Shown here: positions 58,466 through 64,000 of the stretch, piece after piece
How positions within the stretch are numbered: position 1 is the first letter of the stretch
Layout: each line of letters begins with the position of its first letter
Virus record (IMG/VR): IMGVR_UViG_3300003962_000013
Coordinates: 50,785-114,784 of that record
Length of the DNA stretch: 64,000 nt
Source of the DNA: a virus
Lineage: Duplodnaviria > Caudoviricetes
Reading direction: 5' to 3' (one strand)
Made by a program: the position numbers and the translations under genes
Notes under the pieces: model-generated
Told to the model about the DNA's origin: nothing
The model's input: the letters and a program-made list of their open reading frames with translations, nothing else
The model's database searches: none

Positions 58466-58546
58466 ATCTTTTATTTTTTAATTTGCTTAAACATATGTTA
58501 AAAAATCTTGTAATCCAAATAAATTATCAGAAATTTAGTTAATTTC

Positions 58547-59056
58547 TTAAAACATTAAATATGGTTGCCAACTTTCAACATCCTTATGTGATTTATAAAT
58601 AAAATATATAGGATGTGGTTTTGATGGTCTAAATAACAATTTCATTCCTGCTTGTTCTGGAGTTCTATCTCCTTTTTTAGCATTACATGAAAAACAACAT
58701 GTTATTAAATTTTCCCAGGTATTAGATCCTCCTTTAGATTTAGGAATAATATGGTCAACAGTTAAATTTTTAGTAGATGGACAATAAGCACATTTGTGTT
58801 CATCTCTTTTAAATATATTTTCTCTTGATAAAACTACTTTTCTATAAGGAATATTTACATATTTAATTAAACGAATAACTGATGGTTTAACATATTTATT
58901 ATTTACTTTATATAAACCATCTTGTTCAACTATTTCTGCTTTTCCTTTATAAATTAATTTATATGCTTTTTTGAATGTAGTTACATTTACAGGTAAATAG
59001 TCTGAATTCAATACTAATATCTTAGTTAAATCCTTATTTATTCTATGTATCCGCAT
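58547..59056 (-). CDS. HNH endonuclease (McrA-like)
   Basis: LVLNSDY; IFKRDEHKCAYC; TVDHIIPKSKGG; CNAKKGDRTP. Confidence 0.9.
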   Translation of the reverse strand: MRIHRINKDLTKILVLNSDYLPVNVTTFKKAYKLIYKGKAEIVEQDGLYKVNNKYVKPSVIRLIKYVNIPYRKVVLSRENIFKRDEHKCAYCPSTKNLTVDHIIPKSKGGSNTWENLITCCFSCNAKKGDRTPEQAGMKLLFRPSKPHPIYFIYKSHKDVESWQPYLMF

Positions 59057-59072
59057 ATTATTTGTTTTTTAG

Positions 59073-59153
59073 TACTCCCTGCGAGAGTCGAACTCGCACG
59101 CCGTGGCAATGAGTCTTAAGCTCATCGTGTACTACCAGTTTCACCAAGGGAGC
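59073..59153 (-). tRNA. tRNA-Leu(TAA)
   Basis: Anticodon arm ATGAG-CTTAAGA-CTCAT; long variable arm. Confidence 0.9.
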
Positions 59154-59171
59154 ATTTATTATAAATATTTG

Positions 59172-59247
59172 TACCCAACGTGGGACTCGAACCCACAAAA
59201 AATTAGTTCCTAAGACTAACGCGTACTACCAGTTTCGCCAGTTGGGC
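59172..59247 (-). tRNA. tRNA-Leu(TAG)
   Basis: TTAGT-CTTAGGA-ACTAA; variable region is only T6. Confidence 0.85.
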
Positions 59248-59367
59248 ATTTTACACCCCACGCAAGGGGTGAGTGGGTTATTGCTCCTAGTTGTTACTTT
59301 TCACTCTTTTACATTTGCGCATGTATCGTTATTTTTCACTCAAAGCCGCATACCACTATAGCTATAG

Positions 59368-59440
59368 TACACCATATAGGATTTGAACCTATACCAAGAA
59401 GTTCGTAGCCTCCCATTCTATCCAGTTAAACTAACGGTGT
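59368..59440 (-). tRNA. tRNA-Arg(ACG)
   Basis: GGAGG-CTACGAA-CTTCT. Confidence 0.9.
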
Positions 59441-59446
59441 ATGTTG

Positions 59447-59521
59447 GGTGATAAGTGAGGATCGAACTCACAACCTCTTGTCTCACAAACAAGCGCTCTT
59501 ACCAATTGAGCTATTAACACC
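59447..59521 (-). tRNA. tRNA-His(GTG)
   Basis: CTTGT-TTGTGAG-ACAAG; encoded G-1:C73. Confidence 0.9.
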
Positions 59522-59526
59522 ATATG

Positions 59527-59600
59527 TTTTCCCCGGTGGATTCGAACCAAACCATCGTAATGTTCAAAGCATTACATCCTGCCAATTAGACGAGGGGAAA
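59527..59600 (-). tRNA. tRNA-Gln(TTG)
   Basis: TAATG-CTTTGAA-CATTA; bulged T stem. Confidence 0.85.
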
Positions 59601-59605
59601 ATATG

Positions 59606-59678
59606 AGGAGATAATTGGAATTGAACCAATCTAAACGGTTTTTGCAGACCGCCACTTTAGCCTCTCAGACATATCTCC
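59606..59678 (-). tRNA. tRNA-Cys(GCA)
   Basis: GCGGT-CTGCAAAA-ACCGT (8-nt loop as read); U73. Confidence 0.8.
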
Positions 59679-59683
59679 TTATG

Positions 59684-59756
59684 TACACTCTACCGGAATC
59701 GAACCGGTGACCTTGATGATATAAGCATCCTGCTCCCCCAATTGAGCTAAGAGTGT
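59684..59756 (-). tRNA. tRNA-Ile(TAT)
   Basis: GATG-CTTATAT-CATC. Confidence 0.88.
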
Positions 59757-59759
59757 ATT

Positions 59760-59835
59760 TGGAGCTTCCTACCGGATTCGAACCGATCGTATCTTGATTA
59801 CAAGTCAAGCGCAGCGCCATCTCTGCTTAAGAAGC
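59760..59835 (-). tRNA. tRNA-Thr(TGT)
   Basis: CTTGA-CTTGTAA-TCAAG; encoded CCA. Confidence 0.9.
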
Positions 59836-59840
59836 TTATG

Positions 59841-59914
59841 CGATCCATACCAGATTTGAACTGGTGATCTCCTACGTGACAGGCAGGCAGGGACGACCTC
59901 TCCCCTAATGGACC
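59841..59914 (-). tRNA. tRNA-Asp(GTC)
   Basis: CCTGC-CTGTCAC-GTAGG. Confidence 0.9.
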
Positions 59915-59923
59915 AATTTTATG

Positions 59924-60004
59924 AGCGGGTGAAAGGAATCGAACCTTCATCCCTAGTTTGGAAGACTAGTATAATATACTTTCGTGCCACTATACGACAC
60001 CCGC
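59924..60004 (-). tRNA. tRNA-Gly(TCC)
   Basis: CTAGT-CTTCCAA-ACTAG; enlarged D loop. Confidence 0.85.
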
Positions 60005-60007
60005 TTA

Positions 60008-60081
60008 TGGTACCTCTAGATAGAGTCGAACTATCTCGAATTGGATGTAAACCAATCATACTACCCTTATATGTTAGAGGC
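60008..60081 (-). tRNA. tRNA-Val(TAC)
   Basis: ATTGG-TTTACAT-CCAAT; encoded CCA. Confidence 0.88.
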
Positions 60082-60666
60082 TTATTTTTTATTATTTTTT
60101 CCTTTAAATGTCAAAGTTTGAGAATGGCAATTTGGACATAATAATCTTAAATTAGTTAAAATGTTATTATTTCTATTTCCATCTATGTGATCTAAATCTA
60201 ATATTATTTTTTCTCCCATCCACTCATTTATCCCACAAATTAAACATTTATATTCAAATATTTTTTCTTTTAATAAATAGGTTTTAATATTATTATTAAT
60301 ACTCCCATAATAAGGATTAGTATATATTATTTTTCCTTCTATTAATTGTTTAATATTTAATTTTCTATTCTTTAATTTATATACTTTATTCTCTATTAAA
60401 AAATTTTTAATAAAAATATTACTAACATTATATTTAGAAGAAATACATTTAATAGATTTACCTTCATTATATAAATTTAAAATATCTCCCCCATTTTTTA
60501 ATAATAAATCTTTATATTTACTATTAATTCTCTTACTTTTAAATTTCCCTGTGTATTTTTTTAAGTAATACCCCACTGTTCCTTTAGAAATATTTAATAT
60601 TTCACATATTTGACTTATCGAATATCCTTCTTCTCTTAATTGATAAGTTTTAAATCTTTTATTCAT
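60082..60666 (-). CDS. HNH homing endonuclease with N-terminal HTH
   Basis: CLICG…LDLDHIDGNRNNN…LLCPNCHSQT. Confidence 0.88.
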   Translation of the reverse strand: MNKRFKTYQLREEGYSISQICEILNISKGTVGYYLKKYTGKFKSKRINSKYKDLLLKNGGDILNLYNEGKSIKCISSKYNVSNIFIKNFLIENKVYKLKNRKLNIKQLIEGKIIYTNPYYGSINNNIKTYLLKEKIFEYKCLICGINEWMGEKIILDLDHIDGNRNNNILTNLRLLCPNCHSQTLTFKGKNNKK

Positions 60667-60720
60667 ATTATTTTTTTATCATAAATATCGAACTAATATG
60701 TAAAATTCGAATTGATTACG

Positions 60721-60791
60721 TCTAGATAGCTGGGATCGAACCAGCCACAAAATGATCCCAAATCATTCCCGACACCATGTGCGTTATCTAG
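60721..60791 (-). tRNA. tRNA-Pro(TGG)
   Basis: AATGA-TTTGGGA-TCATT; short atypical D arm. Confidence 0.8.
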
Positions 60792-60795
60792 TTAT

Positions 60796-60871
60796 TGGTG
60801 GATCCTATCGGAATCGAACCGATATCACTTGTTCTTCAGACAAGCGCATTGACCAACTTTGCTAAAGATCC
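60796..60871 (-). tRNA. tRNA-Phe(GAA)
   Basis: CTTGT-CTGAAGA-ACAAG; encoded CCA. Confidence 0.92.
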
Positions 60872-60877
60872 ATTTTG

Positions 60878-60961
60878 TGGGAGCAGAAGGATTCGAACCT
60901 ACTACCTCTGCGGGTTACCTGATTTACAGTCAAGCGCCTAACCAATTCGAGCGTTACTCCC
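60878..60961 (-). tRNA. tRNA-Tyr(GTA)
   Basis: CTTGA-CTGTAAA-TCAGG; long variable arm. Confidence 0.9.
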
Positions 60962-61394
60962 TTTTTAATCCATATTCTTTTATCAATTGATATACTCTAT
61001 TATAATTATCTCCTCCACTCCTTAATTTAACCCTACTTAAAATTTCAGATATATTACCTCCTAGTTTTATACTTTCAATCAATTCTTTATCTTTTATCGA
61101 TGGATTTTTCTTTTTTCTATTATTTTTATTTTTCCAAGTTATAGTTTGAGAATGACAATTTGGACAAAGCCATCTTAAATTTTCTCTTGTATTATTTAAT
61201 TTATCCCCATTTATATGATCTAAATCTAATTCTATTTTTATTCCATTATATTCATCTTTTATACCACAAATACACTTATATTCTATTAAATTGGAATTTT
61301 TTAATTTATGTCTAAAAGCAGGAACAAATTTAATAATTAATTCTCCATTTAATATTTTTTCCAAATTATCTTTAATATTTTGTCTTTCTTTCAT
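60954..61394 (-). CDS. HNH homing endonuclease
   Basis: LDLDHINGDKLNN…WLCPNCHSQT; the stop codon lies inside tRNA-Tyr. Confidence 0.88.
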   Translation of the reverse strand: MKERQNIKDNLEKILNGELIIKFVPAFRHKLKNSNLIEYKCICGIKDEYNGIKIELDLDHINGDKLNNTRENLRWLCPNCHSQTITWKNKNNRKKKNPSIKDKELIESIKLGGNISEILSRVKLRSGGDNYNRVYQLIKEYGLKRE

Positions 61395-61446
61395 TTTATT
61401 ATAAATATTTTAAAATGTCTGAAAAACAATGAAACAAATATTTTTG

Positions 61447-61519
61447 CGCTTCGTGTGGGAGTCGAACCCACATCCATCTGATTAACAGTCAGCCGCTCTA
61501 CCTTCTGAGCTTCCGAAGC
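61447..61519 (-). tRNA. tRNA-Asn(GTT)
   Basis: CTGA-CTGTTAA-TCAG. Confidence 0.9.
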
Positions 61520-61529
61520 TTATATTTTG

Positions 61530-61601
61530 TGTCCCCGAGGGGAATCGAACCCCTACCCGTATATTAAAAGTATACTGCGCGTGCCTTCTCGCCACGAGGA
61601 C
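61530..61601 (-). tRNA. tRNA-Lys(TTT)
   Basis: GTATA-CTTTTAA-TATAC. Confidence 0.88.
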
Positions 61602-61655
61602 ATAATCTTATCGTCCTCGATTTTTTTACTTGTTTCCATTTTTCATATTTTTTAG

Positions 61656-61728
61656 TCATCATAGTTGGAATTGAACCAACGGCCTTTTGCTTATCAGACA
61701 AATGCTCTACCAACTGAGCTATATGATG
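61656..61728 (-). tRNA. tRNA-Ile(GAT)
   Basis: TTTGT-CTGATAA-GCAAA. Confidence 0.92.
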
Positions 61729-61779
61729 TGGTGGAATTCATTTTTTAAGGAAAATAGATATCTCTAAACTAAACCTTTG

Positions 61780-61849
61780 TGGACTGCGTGGGAATCGAAC
61801 CCAAATAAAAACTTTGCAAAAGTTTCCGCCTGCCTTCGGCATCGCGCCC
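61780..61849 (-). tRNA. tRNA-Ala(TGC)
   Basis: AAACT-TTTGCAA-AGTTT; G3:U70; bulged acceptor stem. Confidence 0.8.
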
Positions 61850-61863
61850 ATATTATTTTATTG

Positions 61864-61950
61864 CGGAAGTCAAGAGAATCGAACTCTCACCAGTATTACC
61901 TGGAATAACTTAGCAGGTTATCGTAACAAACCAATATTTACCTAACTTCC
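61864..61950 (-). tRNA. tRNA-Ser(GCT)
   Basis: ATAAC-CTGCTAA-GTTAT; long variable arm. Confidence 0.9.
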
Positions 61951-61958
61951 AATCTTTG

Positions 61959-62041
61959 CGGAAGACCAGAGACTCGAACTCTGACGCCTTTTACAGCTAC
62001 TAGTTTTCAAGACTAGCTCCTCATCCAGCCGGATGCCTTCC
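61959..62041 (-). tRNA. tRNA-Ser(TGA)
   Basis: CTAGT-CTTGAAA-ACTAG; long variable arm. Confidence 0.9.
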
Positions 62042-62046
62042 TTTTG

Positions 62047-62120
62047 CACGCCCTGTAGGGATCGAACCTACGACCTATGGTTTTGGAGACCAGTGCTCTA
62101 CCAAACTGAGCTAAAGACGC
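62047..62120 (-). tRNA. tRNA-Trp(CCA)
   Basis: TGGT-CTCCAAA-ACCA. Confidence 0.92.
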
Positions 62121-62130
62121 GTATGTAAAT

Positions 62131-62169
62131 AAAACAAAAAATCCGAACCTCTTTTATCTGGTTCGGATT
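62131..62169 (-). terminator. Intrinsic terminator (attenuator) directly upstream of the tRNA array
   Basis: AATCCGAACC-AGATAAAAGA-GGTTCGGATT followed by a T-rich tract, ending about 10 nt before tRNA-Trp. Confidence 0.85.
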
Positions 62170-62216
62170 AATCATTTAATTATATCTTAAATTAAACTAC
62201 ATTTAATACCGAACCA
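62159..62216 (-). promoter_or_regulatory. Predicted antiterminator
   Basis: TGGTTCGG (62216-62209, inside the leader ORF) pairs with CCGAACCA (62166-62159, terminator 5' arm); inner ATTAA/TTAAT and TTTAATT/AATTAAA helices. Confidence 0.7.
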
Positions 62217-62311
62217 CAATTTATACCCCATCCCTTATTATCGACAATCGATAAACGATACGTCGCCTGAAGGCAAGGACTAAATTGATTATGTATTAAA
62301 TTTGTTTTCAT
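62192..62311 (-). CDS. Putative attenuator leader peptide (39 aa)
   Basis: Read by hand: MKTNLIHNQFSPCLQATYRLSIVDNKGWGINCGSVLNVV*; A-rich start context like the other genes. Confidence 0.72.
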   Translation of the reverse strand: MKTNLIHNQFSPCLQATYRLSIVDNKGWGINCGSVLNVV

Positions 62312-62449
62312 TTTTATTTTTTAATTATTAAGATGATATGAATGGTCCTTGTACTATATCCATTCTTTTATAAGGAATATCAATTCTTATTATACATATT
62401 GTAAATTTCTGAAAAACTACAATTTTATTATCTTTTTTTCTTATACTTT

Positions 62450-62478
62450 AATATACGATGGAAATTTTGAATTTCCAA
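62450..62478 (-). promoter_or_regulatory. Sigma70-like promoter for the leader and tRNA array
   Basis: TTGGAA-N17-TATATT; an ATATGTATAA motif also lies at 62390..62399. Confidence 0.65.
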
Positions 62479-62630
62479 ATTTTCTTTAAAAAAAGTTTAG
62501 GAGATATTAAAAACGTCTTTTTAACAGAGCTCCAAAGTCATATCTTGTTCTGCTCAACTTGATTCACTAAAAAAGATCTCATTCATTTGGGCTTCATTTT
62601 TAGCAGTCGAGAGGCCTGATAAGATATTTG

Positions 62631-62704
62631 TAGCGCTGAGTTGGATTCGAACCAACGATCTCAAGCTTATGAGGCTTGCGAGATGACCACTTCTCTACCC
62701 CGCT
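62631..62704 (-). tRNA. tRNA-Met(CAT)
   Basis: CAAGC-CTCATAA-GCTTG; initiator-like 5' half; imperfect acceptor stem. Confidence 0.75.
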
Positions 62705-63108
62705 ATTTTTAAATGAAAAGGTTTATAATGTTCTTTTTTGTGACAATTAGAACATAATACTATACATTTTTCAATTTCTTTTAAAACAATTTCTTTATCT
62801 ATTCTTCTTTTCAACATTTCAGATATTCCGCCTTCTTTTTCATTAGGATCTAAATGGTGAAATTCTAAACATGATGGATGATTTTCTTCACATCTTAAAC
62901 ATTTTAAAGAATTTTTGTATTCATCATACCAAACTCTATGTTTTTGATAATTTTCCTTATATATTTCAATATTGTTTATATAATGAATTTTTGAAGAATT
63001 TCTAACACATTTTTTACAATAAGAAGACAACCCAGTTTTTTTATTTTTAGAATTTTTATTAAACTCTTTTTCTTCTTTTTCTATTTTACACTTCGAACAT
63101 ATTTTCAT
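62695..63108 (-). CDS. HNH homing endonuclease
   Basis: KICSKC; CLRC…LEFHHLDP…CIVLCSNCHKKEH; the stop codon lies inside tRNA-Met. Confidence 0.88.
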   Translation of the reverse strand: MKICSKCKIEKEEKEFNKNSKNKKTGLSSYCKKCVRNSSKIHYINNIEIYKENYQKHRVWYDEYKNSLKCLRCEENHPSCLEFHHLDPNEKEGGISEMLKRRIDKEIVLKEIEKCIVLCSNCHKKEHYKPFHLKIAG

Positions 63109-63148
63109 ACTTATATTTTATTATAAATATATAAAGAGTTCGAAAAAG

Positions 63149-63532
63149 TGGAGCCGGAGGGAATCGAACCCTCGTTTGGATAAGTGTTGAATGAAATTCA
63201 TTTACATGCTTAGTTAATTTTTCTAAATTAACAAAATAAAAGATTTGATATATGTGAGAAACCCATCTTTAAACAACTTGGTCTTGGAATCATTTTAACC
63301 GAGCTCCAACCTGCGACCCGAAATTTTGTATCCTTCTGTTTCTAGGTTGGATATAACCCAAATTGATTAAGCAGCTACTGCTAAATCAGCACCAACGAAA
63401 GACATTGCGTCTTCGAAAGTAAAAGTAGACTTTTCGTCATTTAATTTGTATATAGGTTATTTACGTGTTTCCAATACTAACACGACATGCATCTCAAAGA
63501 ACTTAAGTATCCAGCAAAAGCCTGGCGACCCC
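63149..63532 (-). ncRNA. ssrA: tmRNA
   Basis: 5' GGGGTCG pairs with 3' CGGCTCC-A (G3:U); T arm GAGGG-TTCGATT-CCCTC; tag ORF 63438-63367 (A)DEKSTFTFEDAMSFVGADLAVAA*. Confidence 0.93.
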
Positions 63533-63843
63533 ATTAAATTGTGTCTATGGACTCCCTCTGTCGTAGGTGATGGGCGCCCATACTCAATAATCCATCTAAT
63601 TCTTCCTTTGAAACAGTCAATGGATTGACGTAAGACTTACTAAGTTATCCTCGCTTACAGGTACCTCGATGTGAAGTATTTCATCCCTGTCAATTGAAGA
63701 CTAAGAGGAAGTAAGTTAACTTTATCTGTATAGTTTAGCACTTTATTTGGACTTAATTCTAGGGAAAATTGACCTAAAATTTTATGGAGTTTCTCCTAAC
63801 CAATATAAAGGTTCTTACACCCTTAGCTTTACCTTAGTAATTG

Positions 63844-63916
63844 TACTCCCGACGAGAATCGAACTCGTGTTTACTGTGCGAAAGACAGTCGTCCTTAACC
63901 CCTAGACGACGGGAGC
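63844..63916 (-). tRNA. tRNA-Glu(TTC)
   Basis: ACTGT-CTTTCGC-ACAGT. Confidence 0.92.
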
Positions 63917-63922
63917 ATTAAT

Positions 63923-64000
63923 TTATTGAGTATGGGCGCCCATCACCTACGACAGAGGGAGTCCATAGACACAATTTAATGGGGTCGCCAGGCTTTTGCT
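63923..64000. repeat. Perfect inverted copy of 63513..63590 (at least 78 bp, runs off the window)
   Basis: The reverse complement matches base for base and includes the first 20 nt of tmRNA. Confidence 0.95.

Follow-up and report, generated by a model that had tools for sequence, protein, structure and literature searches.

Organisation of the Locus

The window, a 64,000-nucleotide stretch of a Caudoviricetes phage genome (IMG/VR record IMGVR_UViG_3300003962_000013), carries a large tRNA array on its minus strand. ARAGORN identifies 18 tRNAs from 62120 to 59072, and Rfam adds three more: Tyr (60878-60961, 36 bits), Gly (59930-59999, 32.7 bits, partial), and Pro (60721-60791, 29.7 bits). The total is 21 tRNAs for 18 amino acids (W, S, A, I, K, N, Y, F, P, V, G, D, T, C, Q, H, R, and L), arranged as Trp, Ser(UGA), Ser(GCU), Ala, Ile(GAU), Lys, Asn, Tyr, Phe, Pro, and Val, followed by Gly, Asp, Thr, Ile(UAU), Cys, Gln, His, Arg(ACG), Leu(UAG), and Leu(UAA). 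The tRNA-Ala scores under the Rfam cut-off, and the tRNA-Gly has a 9-nt insertion compared with its relatives. Ahead of the array lies a short leader ORF and a predicted terminator. Apart from the array, tRNA-Met, and tRNA-Glu, no further credible tRNA was found in the whole 114,784-bp genome.

63916-63843, minus strand: tRNA-Glu, upstream of the leader
63532-63146, minus strand: tmRNA, upstream of the leader (Rfam, 77.3 bits)
63108-62695, minus strand: HNH ORF among the upstream RNA genes
62704-62633, minus strand: tRNA-Met, upstream of the leader
62633..63916, minus strand: span of the RNA genes outside the putative attenuator control (tRNA-Glu, tmRNA, tRNA-Met)
62450..62478, minus strand: candidate promoter P1, TTGGAA-17-TATATT, from a consensus scan; function inferred
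62389..62398, minus strand: candidate promoter P2, TATGTATAAT, invariant in all type A leaders
62192..62311, minus strand (62311-62192): leader ORF, 39 codons plus TAA, translation MKTNLIHNQFSPCLQATYRLSIVDNKGWGINCGSVLNVV
62228..62308, minus strand: proposed sensing zone, codons 2-28 (KTNLIHNQFSPCLQATYRLSIVDNKGW), with at least one codon per downstream anticodon box (21/21)
62286..62313, minus strand: segment 1, 5' end of the ORF, inverted repeat I2 (28 nt, 75% complementary)
62203..62216, minus strand: segment 2, antiterminator strand TGGTTCGGTATTAA, core GGTTCGG, codons 33-35
62159..62171, minus strand: segment 3, terminator 5' arm ATCCGAACC (62168-62160) plus extension TTAATCCGAACCA
62131..62149, minus strand: segment 4, terminator 3' arm GGTTCGGAT (62149-62141) plus T tract TTTTTGTTTT (62140-62131)
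59072..62120, minus strand: putatively regulated array, 21 tRNAs (ARAGORN and Rfam)
61394-60954 and 60666-60082: two HNH endonuclease genes interrupting the array, each with a promoter-like motif

The initial annotation had placed 21 tRNAs for 18 amino acids behind the terminator, and only tRNA-Glu and tRNA-Met upstream of it. The first claim held, as did the second with regard to tRNAs, although the tmRNA had been omitted.

In three related phages (L039, L082, and L042) the order of the array tRNAs is identical and the HNH genes are absent from the arrays. Since each HNH gene has a promoter-like motif, the distal tRNAs of the window phage are possibly transcribed without the attenuator, and it cannot be excluded that attenuator control reaches only the first seven. 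Many relatives have tRNA-Glu and the tmRNA while both the array and the leader are missing; thus, array and leader behave as an accessory module.

Both candidate promoters have counterparts elsewhere. P1 contains a palindrome (GGAAATT..AATTTCC), the element is kept in type A relatives, and a P1-like element, TTTGG..CATATATTTATAA, lies about 25 nt ahead of the type B leader ATG. P2 represents the gene-start motif of the phage itself (ATATTTATAAT / TATGTATAAT), which is also found 10-20 nt before many long phage ORFs; in L042 it is spaced 16 nt from the leader ATG. The leader has no Shine-Dalgarno sequence, and only 2/109 long phage ORFs have one. It starts, as phage genes do, with ATG-AAA in an A-rich upstream context. 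Translation of the leader is inferred from this phage-gene-like promoter and start context, from the MK starts, and from the pN/pS of type B leaders.

Codon Content of the Leader

The amino acids of the leader are exactly the 18 served by the 21 downstream tRNAs, plus the start Met. There is no Glu and no internal Met, and GAR, AGR, and internal ATG codons are all absent. The initial annotation had claimed this, and it holds in the window; as a rule, it is not absolute, since the L039 leader has a GAA and an internal ATG, both among its last codons, and a ribosome stalled there would sit on the antiterminator. Two further claims were confirmed: each duplicated isoacceptor is sampled separately (TTA and CTT, ATA and ATT, AGT and TCG), and the sole Arg codon is CGT, which accounts for 0.52% of codons phage-wide, compared with 2.12% for AGA. 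The proposed need for four-way U34 reading held for CTT and CCT.

The sensing zone, from which codons for Glu, Met, and Arg-AGR are absent, was delimited retrospectively by the rule that the A-site codon must start at least 13 nt before the antiterminator strand. Likewise, the hypothesis and the chance test were both framed post hoc, after inspection of the data. Chance was modelled by 2 million draws from phage codon usage. Amino acid diversity alone is only moderately unusual: at least 19 kinds in 38 codons are reached with P = 0.026 in the model, in 2.0% of real 38-codon gene windows, and in 17/2050 small ORFs, six of the 17 being such leaders. The presence of all 18 amino acids with Glu and Met both absent has P = 2.0e-4. 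Coverage of 21/21 boxes without GAR, AGR, and ATG has P = 4.5e-6, and is thus not common under the null model, while none of the 2 million 27-codon draws covered all 21 boxes. No leader codon after the start falls outside these boxes.

The leader is also rich in rare codons, with a CAI of 0.47 versus 0.76 for gene windows, and uses several that are very rare in the phage (TCG twice, GCG, ACG, CAG, GTC, and TGC). A single leader in the window serves a near-complete set, 21 tRNAs for 18 amino acids, sampled within 27 codons.

Leaders and Arrays Across Phages

The comparative sample comprised about 39 distinct leaders in 19 sequence-unrelated groups, taken from related and unrelated Bacteroidota-type phage contigs. 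A common architecture was found in all of them: a promoter, a short ORF (starting MK in 14/19 groups), an in-ORF antiterminator, a terminator, and tRNAs.

Co-variation of leaders with their tRNA sets is shown by these data. The recall, that is, the proportion of a unit's tRNA amino acids present in its own leader, is 0.973 versus 0.753 +/- 0.038 in shuffled pairings; the fraction of leader codons with a tRNA in the unit is 0.657 versus 0.506 +/- 0.022, and the leader/array phi is 0.456 versus 0.032 +/- 0.064. Across the 19 independent groups, 0/200,000 shuffles reached the observed recall, share, or phi. In split codon boxes, a codon of the box is present in 94/100 cases with the tRNA in the unit, and in 95/186 without it. 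Phages with two leaders (L152, L176, and L135) divide the amino acids between the leaders as the tRNAs are divided. In L152, coverage by leader 1 is 9/9 for its own unit and 3/7 for the other, and that by leader 2 is 7/7 and 4/9, respectively. In L176, the leader MSNIINIQPQPQHHPQGC, which precedes Pro, His, Gln, and Gln, covers 3/3 of its own unit and 0/6 of the other, and the second leader covers 6/6 and 0/3.

The type A homologues (L082/L083, L039, and L042) retain the 39-codon frame in all four variants despite indels, and keep 19-20 amino acid kinds and the full inventory though residues move. In L042, C, P, R, and W are relocated, yet none is lost (P = 0.009 if residues are replaced at random with phage amino acid frequencies, P = 0.19 with uniform frequencies). 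Two tRNAs, Ile(UAU) and Leu(UAA), are missing from L042, as checked with Rfam, and ATA and TTR codons are missing from its leader. The window and L083 leaders differ by six non-synonymous and two synonymous changes, with pN about equal to pS, so residue identity is not under purifying selection. In type B leaders, pN/pS is 0.07-0.25. Leaders of relatives reach 20 amino acid kinds in 31 codons (P = 1.4e-4 each).

The mirror has exceptions. In types B and C, some tRNAs lie upstream of the leader and their amino acids (Gly and Thr) are still in it, and the type C leader omits Cys and Arg although both tRNAs are downstream. The fraction of matched codons is 0.83 in the zone in which stalling would free the antiterminator, versus 0.57 in the masked tail. 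The mirror is one-directional: leaders also hold filler codons, which lie mainly at positions where the antiterminator would be masked by a ribosome. The initial annotation had proposed a co-evolved inventory, in which gain or loss of a tRNA tracks that of its codon. It does so, as the joint loss in L042 and the shuffled pairings indicate, and the proposal is supported in a refined form, one-directional, without an absolute exclusion of Glu and Met, and with the type B and C exceptions.

Alternative RNA Structures

The anatomy of the switch and its alternative pairings with covariation are shown; termination by the hairpin is inferred. The terminator has a 9-bp stem and a 10-nt loop, and its T tract ends 10 nt before tRNA-Trp. 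A consensus scan allowing loops of 8 nt or less missed it because of this loop length. It is kept in relatives with compensatory changes.

Segment 3 is common to the antiterminator and terminator helices, since segment 2 is complementary to 62171-62159. The antiterminator helix folds in the nascent RNA ending at the 5' arm (z = -4.5), and is also favoured in a local 99-nt fold. In the minimum-energy fold of the full leader, segment 1 pairs with the antiterminator strand and the terminator is formed. The pairing of segment 2 with the 5' arm covaries, being G:C in the window and L082, and A:T in L039 and L042.

Of the 37 leaders tested, 29 have a strand within the ORF that can pair with the terminator 5' arm, situated in about the last 10 codons, or just 3' of the stop codon in two. 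The complementarity exceeds that of shuffles in the 17 group representatives tested (Fisher combined p = 2e-12); the perfect 7-nt core of the window alone does not stand out (P = 0.115 versus shuffles).

Equilibrium folding with a masked ribosome footprint gave mixed results. The window flips as expected only for stalls at codons 2-13 and 26-27, and several relatives do not flip at all. With the footprint over the last codons, the terminator is predicted in every leader modelled. The stop codon lies 18-50 nt before the terminator 5' arm across leaders (24 nt in the window), so that a terminating ribosome cannot reach the terminator yet covers the antiterminator strand.

Interpretation and Alternatives

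It is likely that the leader ORF belongs to a trp-type, ribosome-mediated attenuator of transcription acting on the phage tRNA array and that, as part of the same joint reading, its codons form a one-per-tRNA inventory of that array. This function is inferred and has not been shown. There is no experimental or transcript support: the sole RNA run with related sequence consists of contigs only, and the leader is not covered.

A general translation-status sensor, a real attenuator that reports overall ribosome speed or any starvation rather than mirroring the array, is the strongest rival, although unlikely. In its favour, the array covers 18/20 amino acids, so that "all" amino acids and the array's own nearly coincide in the window; the leaders of L039, L059, L075, and L122 contain all 20; and codons with no tRNA behind them also occur in leaders (the 95/186 above). 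However, partial arrays have matching partial leaders (L176, L152, L135, L124, and L191), and split boxes follow the isoacceptors. Furthermore, type A sensing zones lack GAR, ATG, and AGR, while GAA makes up 6.3% of phage codons, and tRNAs and codons were lost together in L042. Sensing of the array's own tRNAs thus remains the best reading, its function being inferred.

It is very improbable that the ORF is a chance frame in a structured spacer, with a promoter, RNA structure, and terminator, and a frame that is merely a by-product of GC-richer sequence. Several of the leader codons are very rare in phage genes, as expected of non-coding sequence, 19 amino acid kinds are reached by about 0.5-2% of small ORFs or gene windows, and protein or RNA evidence is lacking. 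Against this, the frame survives indels in relatives, sequence-unrelated leaders in other phages have the same position and property (the 20 kinds in 31 codons), and the pairing test, type B pN/pS, and start context all speak for a real ORF.

A functional small protein, that is, a 39-residue peptide with its own activity whose gene the terminator merely ends, has very little to support it. Type A leaders do share a conserved N-terminus, MKTN..H, and a conserved core, QATYRLSIVD. However, no sequence is common to the different leader groups, yet all track their arrays; R/L and C/P exchange places between the window and L042 with the set kept; and the comparison of the window with L083 gives nearly equal pN and pS. 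Within the core, synonymous sites are conserved as well, which points to a constraint on RNA or codons and not on the protein.

Opposite polarity, a pyrBI-type coupling in which efficient leader translation would give read-through and tRNAs would be made when translation is healthy, can be all but dismissed: nothing specific favours it, even though the response direction is itself inferred, and it conflicts with the position of the stop codon and with the terminator predicted when the last codons are masked.

Relation to Known Systems

Leader-peptide attenuators such as trpL, hisL, leuL, pheL, and the multivalent thrL and ilvL are known from amino acid biosynthetic operons in Proteobacteria. 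Similar to these, the phage element has a short ORF, of inferred translation, immediately before an intrinsic terminator. Formation of the terminator helix precludes that of the antiterminator, and vice versa; a stall at regulatory codons would free the antiterminator, and a finishing ribosome would mask it. As in trpL-type systems, pairing of segments 1 and 2 in the window favours termination without translation. Rare codons are reported to provide sensitivity in leuL, and the phage leader also uses rare codons.

The differences are considerable. The phage element would regulate tRNAs and not enzymes, and would thus sense the product class it controls rather than an amino acid as such. In place of repeats of a few amino acids, its leader has codons for as many as 21 different tRNA species, most of them represented once or twice, and so any single shortage should trigger read-through. 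It is also found in phages of Bacteroidota-type hosts, which do not rely on Shine-Dalgarno sequences.

Attenuators of pheST (the pheM leader) and other aminoacyl-tRNA synthetase genes, as well as T-box riboswitches, likewise tie genes of the translation apparatus to the state of tRNA. The pheM leader serves one amino acid and a protein gene, in contrast to the many tRNAs sampled and the tRNA genes controlled here. T-boxes recognise uncharged tRNA by direct binding, using a specifier codon together with the T-box motif, and translation plays no part; neither a T-box nor any other cis-regulatory family was detected in 58500-64000 (Rfam, E up to 1).

Large tRNA clusters comparable to that of the window are known from phages and mycobacterial arrays, and have been proposed to compensate for codon usage or to stand in for host tRNAs that defence nucleases have destroyed (PMC5966550, PMC6409571, PMC10264068); no report of a leader or attenuator for these was found in the literature searched. 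More broadly, a full-text literature search for phage tRNAs or tRNA arrays together with leader peptides, attenuation, or antiterminators found no such control of tRNA genes. The regulation of such arrays appears to be undescribed, with the reservation that this rests on full-text search hits and that the papers themselves were not opened.

Proposed Mechanism and Significance

In the preferred trp-type model, in which both translation of the ORF and the direction of the response are inferred, transcription would start at a phage promoter 80-165 nt upstream, and a ribosome would load on the A-rich ATG-AAA without a Shine-Dalgarno sequence. When codons 2-28 are decoded fast, it would reach the last codons or the stop and cover TGGTTCGGTATTAA; the hairpin ATCCGAACC/GGTTCGGAT with its T tract would then form, and transcription would end 10 nt before tRNA-Trp. 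When a charged tRNA is scarce, the ribosome would stall at any matching codon and leave TGGTTCGGTATTAA free to pair with the terminator 5' arm, allowing RNA polymerase to enter the array. With no ribosome on the leader, the 5' end of the ORF would sequester the antiterminator strand and the terminator would form. Glu, Met, and Arg-AGR would not be sensed, and their tRNAs are not behind the terminator.

Given that the leader lists every array tRNA and adjoins a terminator switch, tRNA production by the phage is probably raised only when ribosomes slow at a listed codon. If true, this would constitute negative feedback on the supply of the 21 phage-provided tRNAs.

The RNA gene cluster of the window

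The window covers the second half of a phage contig of 114,784 bp, which has 28% G+C, and all of its RNA genes are located on the minus strand, close to the contig end. The 21-tRNA array is preceded by a short open reading frame, referred to here as the leader, and by a predicted terminator.

Features of the RNA gene cluster
63916-63843 (-), tRNA-Glu, the first RNA gene in transcription order
63532-63146 (-), tmRNA (Rfam, 77.3 bits), between tRNA-Glu and tRNA-Met
63108-62695 (-), HNH ORF, listed between the tmRNA and tRNA-Met
62704-62633 (-), tRNA-Met
between tRNA-Met and tRNA-Trp, spacer of 512 nt
62478-62450 (-), conserved promoter-like element 1 (P1)
62398-62389 (-), conserved promoter-like element 2 (P2), TATGTATAAT
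62311-62192 (-), leader ORF of 39 codons
62168-62160 with 62149-62141 (-), predicted terminator hairpin of 9 bp
after the hairpin (-), T tract, with its end 10 nt ahead of tRNA-Trp
62120-59072 (-), array of 21 tRNAs, from Trp (62120) to Leu(UAA) (59072)
61394-60954, 60666-60082, 63108-62695 (listed above) and 59056-58547 (-), HNH endonuclease ORFs within the RNA cluster or next to it, four in all

Eighteen of the 21 array tRNAs were called by ARAGORN, while Tyr, Pro and an atypical Gly were supplied by Rfam; no further credible tRNA was found in the remaining phage genome. The tmRNA (63146-63532, minus strand) is of the permuted form according to ARAGORN, with the tag peptide DEKSTFTFEDAMSFVGADLAVAA. 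Two of the HNH genes (61394-60954 and 60666-60082) interrupt the array. They are absent from the related viral contigs L039, L042 and L082, each has a ATATTTAT[AG]AT-like promoter motif just upstream (at about 61398-61425 and about 60670-60700), and they have the appearance of recent homing insertions. Given these promoter-like motifs, the distal two thirds of the array might be partly uncoupled in the window phage.

Several further features of the cluster were recorded. A perfect 78-nt inverted repeat surrounds tRNA-Glu (63513-63590 and 63923-64000), its outer arm reaching the very contig end and its inner arm overlapping the 5' end of the tmRNA; either the assembly folded back on itself at the contig end, which would make the repeat an artefact, or the segment could be real and invertible or duplicated. 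Compared with L039, L082 and L042, the tRNA-Gly(UCC) gene (59920-60006, minus strand) has 9 nt inserted in its D-arm region; it was missed by ARAGORN at default settings and matched only part of the Rfam model. The tRNA may be impaired or non-canonical. The 119-nt gap between tRNA-Arg(ACG) and tRNA-Leu(UAG) (59248-59366, minus strand) holds a GC-rich hairpin, CCCACTCACCCCTTGCGTGGGGTG, without a tRNA call, conceivably a decayed tRNA or a small RNA. Finally, spacer positions 62516-62535 are a 20-nt near-copy (90%) of 63290-63309, around the 5' strand of the tmRNA acceptor (TTGGAGCTC[TG]GTTAAAA). The near-copy lies within a small palindrome upstream of the leader promoters, is kept in L039, and is possibly a duplication remnant.

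The leader as an inventory of the array

Apart from the start Met, the amino acids of the leader, MKTNLIHNQFSPCLQATYRLSIVDNKGWGINCGSVLNVV, are exactly the 18 that the 21 downstream tRNAs serve. It has codons from each of the two Leu boxes, the two Ser boxes and the two Ile classes, and the sole Arg codon is CGT, though AGA is four times commoner in the phage genes. All 21 of the 21 anticodon boxes of the array are represented among the leader codons. The initial annotation had reported this correspondence, and all of its statements on the sequence held (tRNA calls, Rfam, conceptual translation of the leader). The correspondence is real.

The permutation test proposed there was run with codon frequencies taken from 98 long phage ORFs. 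Coverage of all 21 boxes without GAR, AGR or ATG in 38 codons is rare under the null model (P = 4.5e-6). Less tailored statements give weaker values: P = 2.0e-4 for all 18 amino acids with no Glu and no Met, and P = 0.026 for at least 19 kinds of amino acid, the least tailored of the three (all at phage codon usage). Empirically, 19 or more kinds are found in 2.0% of real 38-codon gene windows and in about 0.5% of other small ORFs. Since the hypothesis was framed after the sequence had been read, the window leader alone is unusual but not conclusive. The observation is strengthened by the position of the codons: codons 2-28, upstream of the zone in which a ribosome would cover the predicted antiterminator, already hold all 21 boxes, and in 2 million random draws of 27 codons this never occurred. 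At the level of the leader family, as described below, chance is excluded.

Homologous leaders

More than 600 related viral contigs were recovered via the neighbouring phosphohydrolase-like gene. Because the majority of these have only tRNA-Glu and tmRNA and no array, the array and leader appear to be an accessory module. Three more versions of the window's leader (type A) were found, one in L082 and L083, one in L039, L081 and L208, and one in L042. Despite indels, all type A leaders have 39 codons, and in all of them the promoter motif and the terminator are retained, together with a strand inside the ORF that can pair with the 5' arm of the terminator. The three further peptides have 19, 20 and 19 kinds of amino acid.

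More than half of the positions differ between the leaders of the window and L042, with R/L and C/P exchanged, and all 18 amino acids are retained; under random replacement the probability of this is 0.009 with phage amino-acid frequencies and 0.19 with uniform ones. In L042, tRNA-Ile(UAU) and tRNA-Leu(UAA) are missing, as confirmed with Rfam, and ATA and TTR are absent from its leader, where three ATT/ATC codons encode Ile and two CTN codons encode Leu. The expectation that loss of a tRNA would track loss of its codon therefore held in this case. The absence of Glu and internal Met held for the window and failed as a literal rule in L039, which has a GAA and an internal ATG; both lie within or adjoin the antiterminator strand.

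The tRNA that reads ATA has the anticodon UAU in the window (59683-59756, minus strand) and L039, and CAU in L082/L083 (L082 7448-7521), at the same array position. ARAGORN labels the L082 tRNA as Met; we take it to be a lysidine-dependent Ile2. This suggests that the strategy for decoding ATA has switched among close relatives while the leader keeps its ATA codons. A GOLLD RNA is present in L042 (1-321; Rfam RF02032, 199.7 bits, truncated by the contig end), directly upstream of tRNA-Met and the leader, at the position of the tmRNA in the window phage.

A blastn search of the leader region against 50,697 GenBank phages gave no match. The nearest named phage by protein is Flavobacterium phage immuto (53% identity on the phosphohydrolase), which has no tRNAs annotated beside its homologous phosphohydrolase gene. 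A scan of metagenome contigs with the type A core pattern gave no new relative, its only match besides the known contig being an unrelated GC-rich one.

A wider family of unrelated leaders

Distant relatives with reordered arrays have leaders of unrelated sequence at the equivalent site. With only 31 codons, type B leaders such as MKHCQSYQFSLKASWMNRPEVKDIRLKGLTM include all 20 amino acids (P = 1.4e-4 at phage usage, 2e-3 with uniform amino acids), and the type C leader has 17-18 kinds in 28 codons. Common to both types is a 13-nt motif, GTTCTTTGACATA, just 3' of the terminator. When viral contigs were scanned for this motif without use of any leader sequence, 129 matches were found, 38 of them with a tRNA within 80 nt downstream, and all 38 have a promoter, a short ORF and a terminator upstream. 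Extra leaders came from a generic search for a hairpin, T tract, tRNA and upstream ORF. In total, about 39 distinct leaders were collected, forming 24 sequence clusters that were merged to 19 independent groups. The counts of leaders and motif matches are lower bounds.

The motif occurs at L059 4667-4685, at L056 5364-5383 and at about 35 other viral loci, thus in many phage contigs that are unrelated to one another, with the first tRNA 15-30 nt further on; a degenerate form (GTTTTATTTACATAC) is present in the window at 62121-62134. It resembles TTGACATA at the leaders' own upstream promoters. Its interpretation as a second promoter was rejected, there being no -7 or -10 box at a suitable distance, and it may instead be a site of pausing or processing, or a joint left by recombination. 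In cellular genome contigs, TTTT(0-3)GTTCTTTGACATA gave at least 120 matches, none of those examined within 120 nt upstream of a tRNA; several are a palindromic repeat of one Saprospiraceae MAG. Within this partial sample there is thus no sign of hosts using the same cassette. A candidate second leader in the gap from His/Ile to Arg(ACG) of types B and C was rejected, since the gap contains a protein-coding gene.

A predicted terminator-antiterminator switch

Between the leader ORF and the tRNAs, an intrinsic terminator is predicted from a 9-bp GC-rich stem followed by TTTTTGTTTT; its termination activity is inferred. An equivalent hairpin with a T tract is present in 34 of the 37 leaders examined. 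In the window, an alternative antiterminator helix can form between 62216-62203 and 62171-62159, with one strand in the ORF and the other shared with the terminator. Among type A leaders one pair of this helix differs in a compensatory way, G:C to A:T: the window and L082 have GGTTCGG:CCGAACC, L039 and L042 have GATTCGG:CCGAATC. Another compensatory pair is found in their terminator stem.

A strand of 6-11 nt that pairs with the 5' arm of the terminator is found in 29 of 37 leaders, in roughly the last ten codons or, in two cases, just past the stop. Compared with shuffled ORFs, this complementarity is highly significant over 17 group representatives (combined p = 2e-12); the 7-nt core of the window by itself gives p = 0.115. 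At its full length the window helix has 13 bp, interrupted by one bulge. RNA transcribed only as far as the 5' arm adopts this helix (z = -4.5), which is also favoured in the local 99-nt fold. In the minimum-energy fold of the full leader, the terminator is formed and the 5' end of the ORF is paired with the antiterminator strand, a layout of four segments resembling that of trp.

The stop codon lies 18-50 nt ahead of the 5' arm of the terminator in all leaders. This spacing means that a finishing ribosome can mask the antiterminator and cannot reach the terminator, from which we infer the likely polarity, namely that a stall would give read-through. When the ribosome footprint is masked in an equilibrium fold, the expected pattern is clean in about half of the leaders and appears only partly in the window. 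As the switch is probably kinetic, this result was counted neither for nor against it.

Pairing of leaders with their own arrays

For each leader, the unit was defined as the tRNAs from its terminator to the next leader or to a gap of more than 1.5 kb. Over the 19 groups, the fraction of served amino acids present in the unit's own leader is 0.973, against 0.753 +/- 0.038 when pairings are shuffled. The fraction of leader codons served by the unit's tRNAs is 0.657 (0.506 +/- 0.022 shuffled), and the phi coefficient is 0.456 (0.032 +/- 0.064 shuffled). None of 200,000 shuffled pairings matched any observed value. In 12 partial arrays, recall is 1.0 versus 0.70.

Phages with two leaders serve as a control for phage composition. 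In the viral contig L152, leader 1 is without A, E, L and N and stands ahead of Ser, Gln, Val, His, Arg, Ser, Pro, Ile, Trp and Tyr (9/9), while leader 2, MKNLNNILNARTEGDNPTVTEMV, stands ahead of Thr, Asn, Leu, Glu, Asp, Leu, Gly and Ala (7/7); scored against each other's units, they reach only 3/7 and 4/9. In another contig, L176, the leader MSNIINIQPQPQHHPQGC is ahead of Pro, His, Gln and Gln, and a leader rich in D, E, V, L, A and W is ahead of Asp, Asp, Glu, Val, Leu, Leu, Ala and Trp, with cross-matches of 0/6 and 0/3. A homologue of L152 leader 1 in contig L195 has Asn codons and a tRNA-Asn behind it, and L152 leader 1 has neither; this tRNA-Asn follows a 1.5-kb gap and is outside the scored unit. 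For the split boxes (Leu, Arg, Ser and Ile), the box codon is present in 94 of 100 cases with the tRNA in the unit and in 95 of 186 without it, these rows not being phylogenetically independent.

Over the part of the leader in which a stalled ribosome would not block the antiterminator, the matched fraction of codons is 0.83; it is 0.66 at codons 2-3 and 0.57 in the masked tail. This concentration accounts for most exceptions (E and M in L039, G and T in type B, E, P and D in the contig L135). Outside this positional explanation are type C, which has no Cys or Arg codons despite downstream tRNAs, and the contig L102. That the leader has co-evolved with the regulated array as its inventory is an inference that these results support, with two qualifications: the mirror is one-way, from tRNA to codon, and it is limited to the sensing part of the ORF.

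Translation and expression of the leader

The evidence that the leader is translated is indirect, and translation is inferred. The ORF has its own phage promoter motif, TATGTATAAT, and an A-rich start context without a Shine-Dalgarno sequence, as in phage genes, only 2 of 109 long phage ORFs having a Shine-Dalgarno sequence. Phage genes typically lie 10-20 nt behind a ATATTTATAAT-like motif, with A-rich sequence around the start, and the leader is arranged in the same way. Genes of this kind, with this motif, fit a Bacteroidota host, and the nearest named phage infects Flavobacterium. An ATG-AAA start is found in 14 of the 19 leader groups.

Differences among type B leaders are mostly synonymous (pN/pS 0.07-0.25). 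For the window against L083, pN and pS are about equal, and the changes fall on amino acids that occur more than once in the leader, as would be expected if selection acted on the set and not on the sequence; the comparison with L081 was left out as invalid, its register being shifted by indels. The leader is rich in codons that are rare in phage genes (CAI 0.47 versus 0.76, with only 0.5% of gene windows as low). This fits either a sensitive sensor or a non-coding sequence. Parts of the stretch occur in 20 public runs from wastewater and aquatic metagenomes, six of them RNA, all available as contigs only. RNA run X15 has no contig over 62148-62411; being contig-level data, this has no bearing on transcription or termination.

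Relation to known regulatory systems

A T-box riboswitch, with a stem I specifier loop and a T-box sequence, was rejected by cmscan of 58500-64000 against all Rfam families (E up to 1), which returned only tRNA, tmRNA and chance matches. The mechanism proposed here is shared with leader-peptide attenuation of the trp, his, leu, thr and ilv operons. Unlike those leaders, which have one to three repeated amino acids, the phage leader lists up to 21 inputs; in addition, the regulated genes are tRNAs and the element is phage-borne. All of the defining features of a ribosome-mediated transcription attenuator that can be assessed at the sequence level are met, and this is the likely mechanism of the window leader, with translation, termination and stalling-dependent read-through all inferred. 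A leader peptide, attenuator or antiterminator of phage tRNA arrays is undescribed in the full-text literature searched, which left most subscription journals outside its scope.

Implications for phage tRNA arrays

The purpose and expression of phage tRNA arrays have been debated for decades, and the roles proposed for them include compensating for codon usage, replacing host tRNAs that have been degraded, and escaping anticodon nucleases. In the lineage of the window phage, the extreme case, the leader is nearly a pangram, with 18-20 amino acids in only 27-31 codons, and one switch would detect a shortage of any of about 21 tRNA species, a shortage that may arise from host anticodon nucleases or host shut-off. 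Taken as a whole, it is likely that phages with hosts of the Bacteroidota type run a homeostatic circuit of tRNA supply, in which each array is gated by a codon-by-codon list in its leader.

If this is true, it would be the first attenuator known to act on tRNA genes, and no leader peptide known so far would be as multivalent. Classical attenuation would be extended to RNA genes, with as many as 21 inputs per switch. Selection would act on the codon set of the leader and not on the peptide. A promoter, an ORF beginning MK, an in-ORF copy of the terminator 3' arm, a terminator and tRNAs together provide a search signature for regulated tRNA units, and the leaders would provide natural, ready-made reporters of whether the tRNA supply is sufficient. 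For the phages themselves, the arrays would be induced on demand, and the relevant signal would be the speed of decoding at exactly the listed codons.
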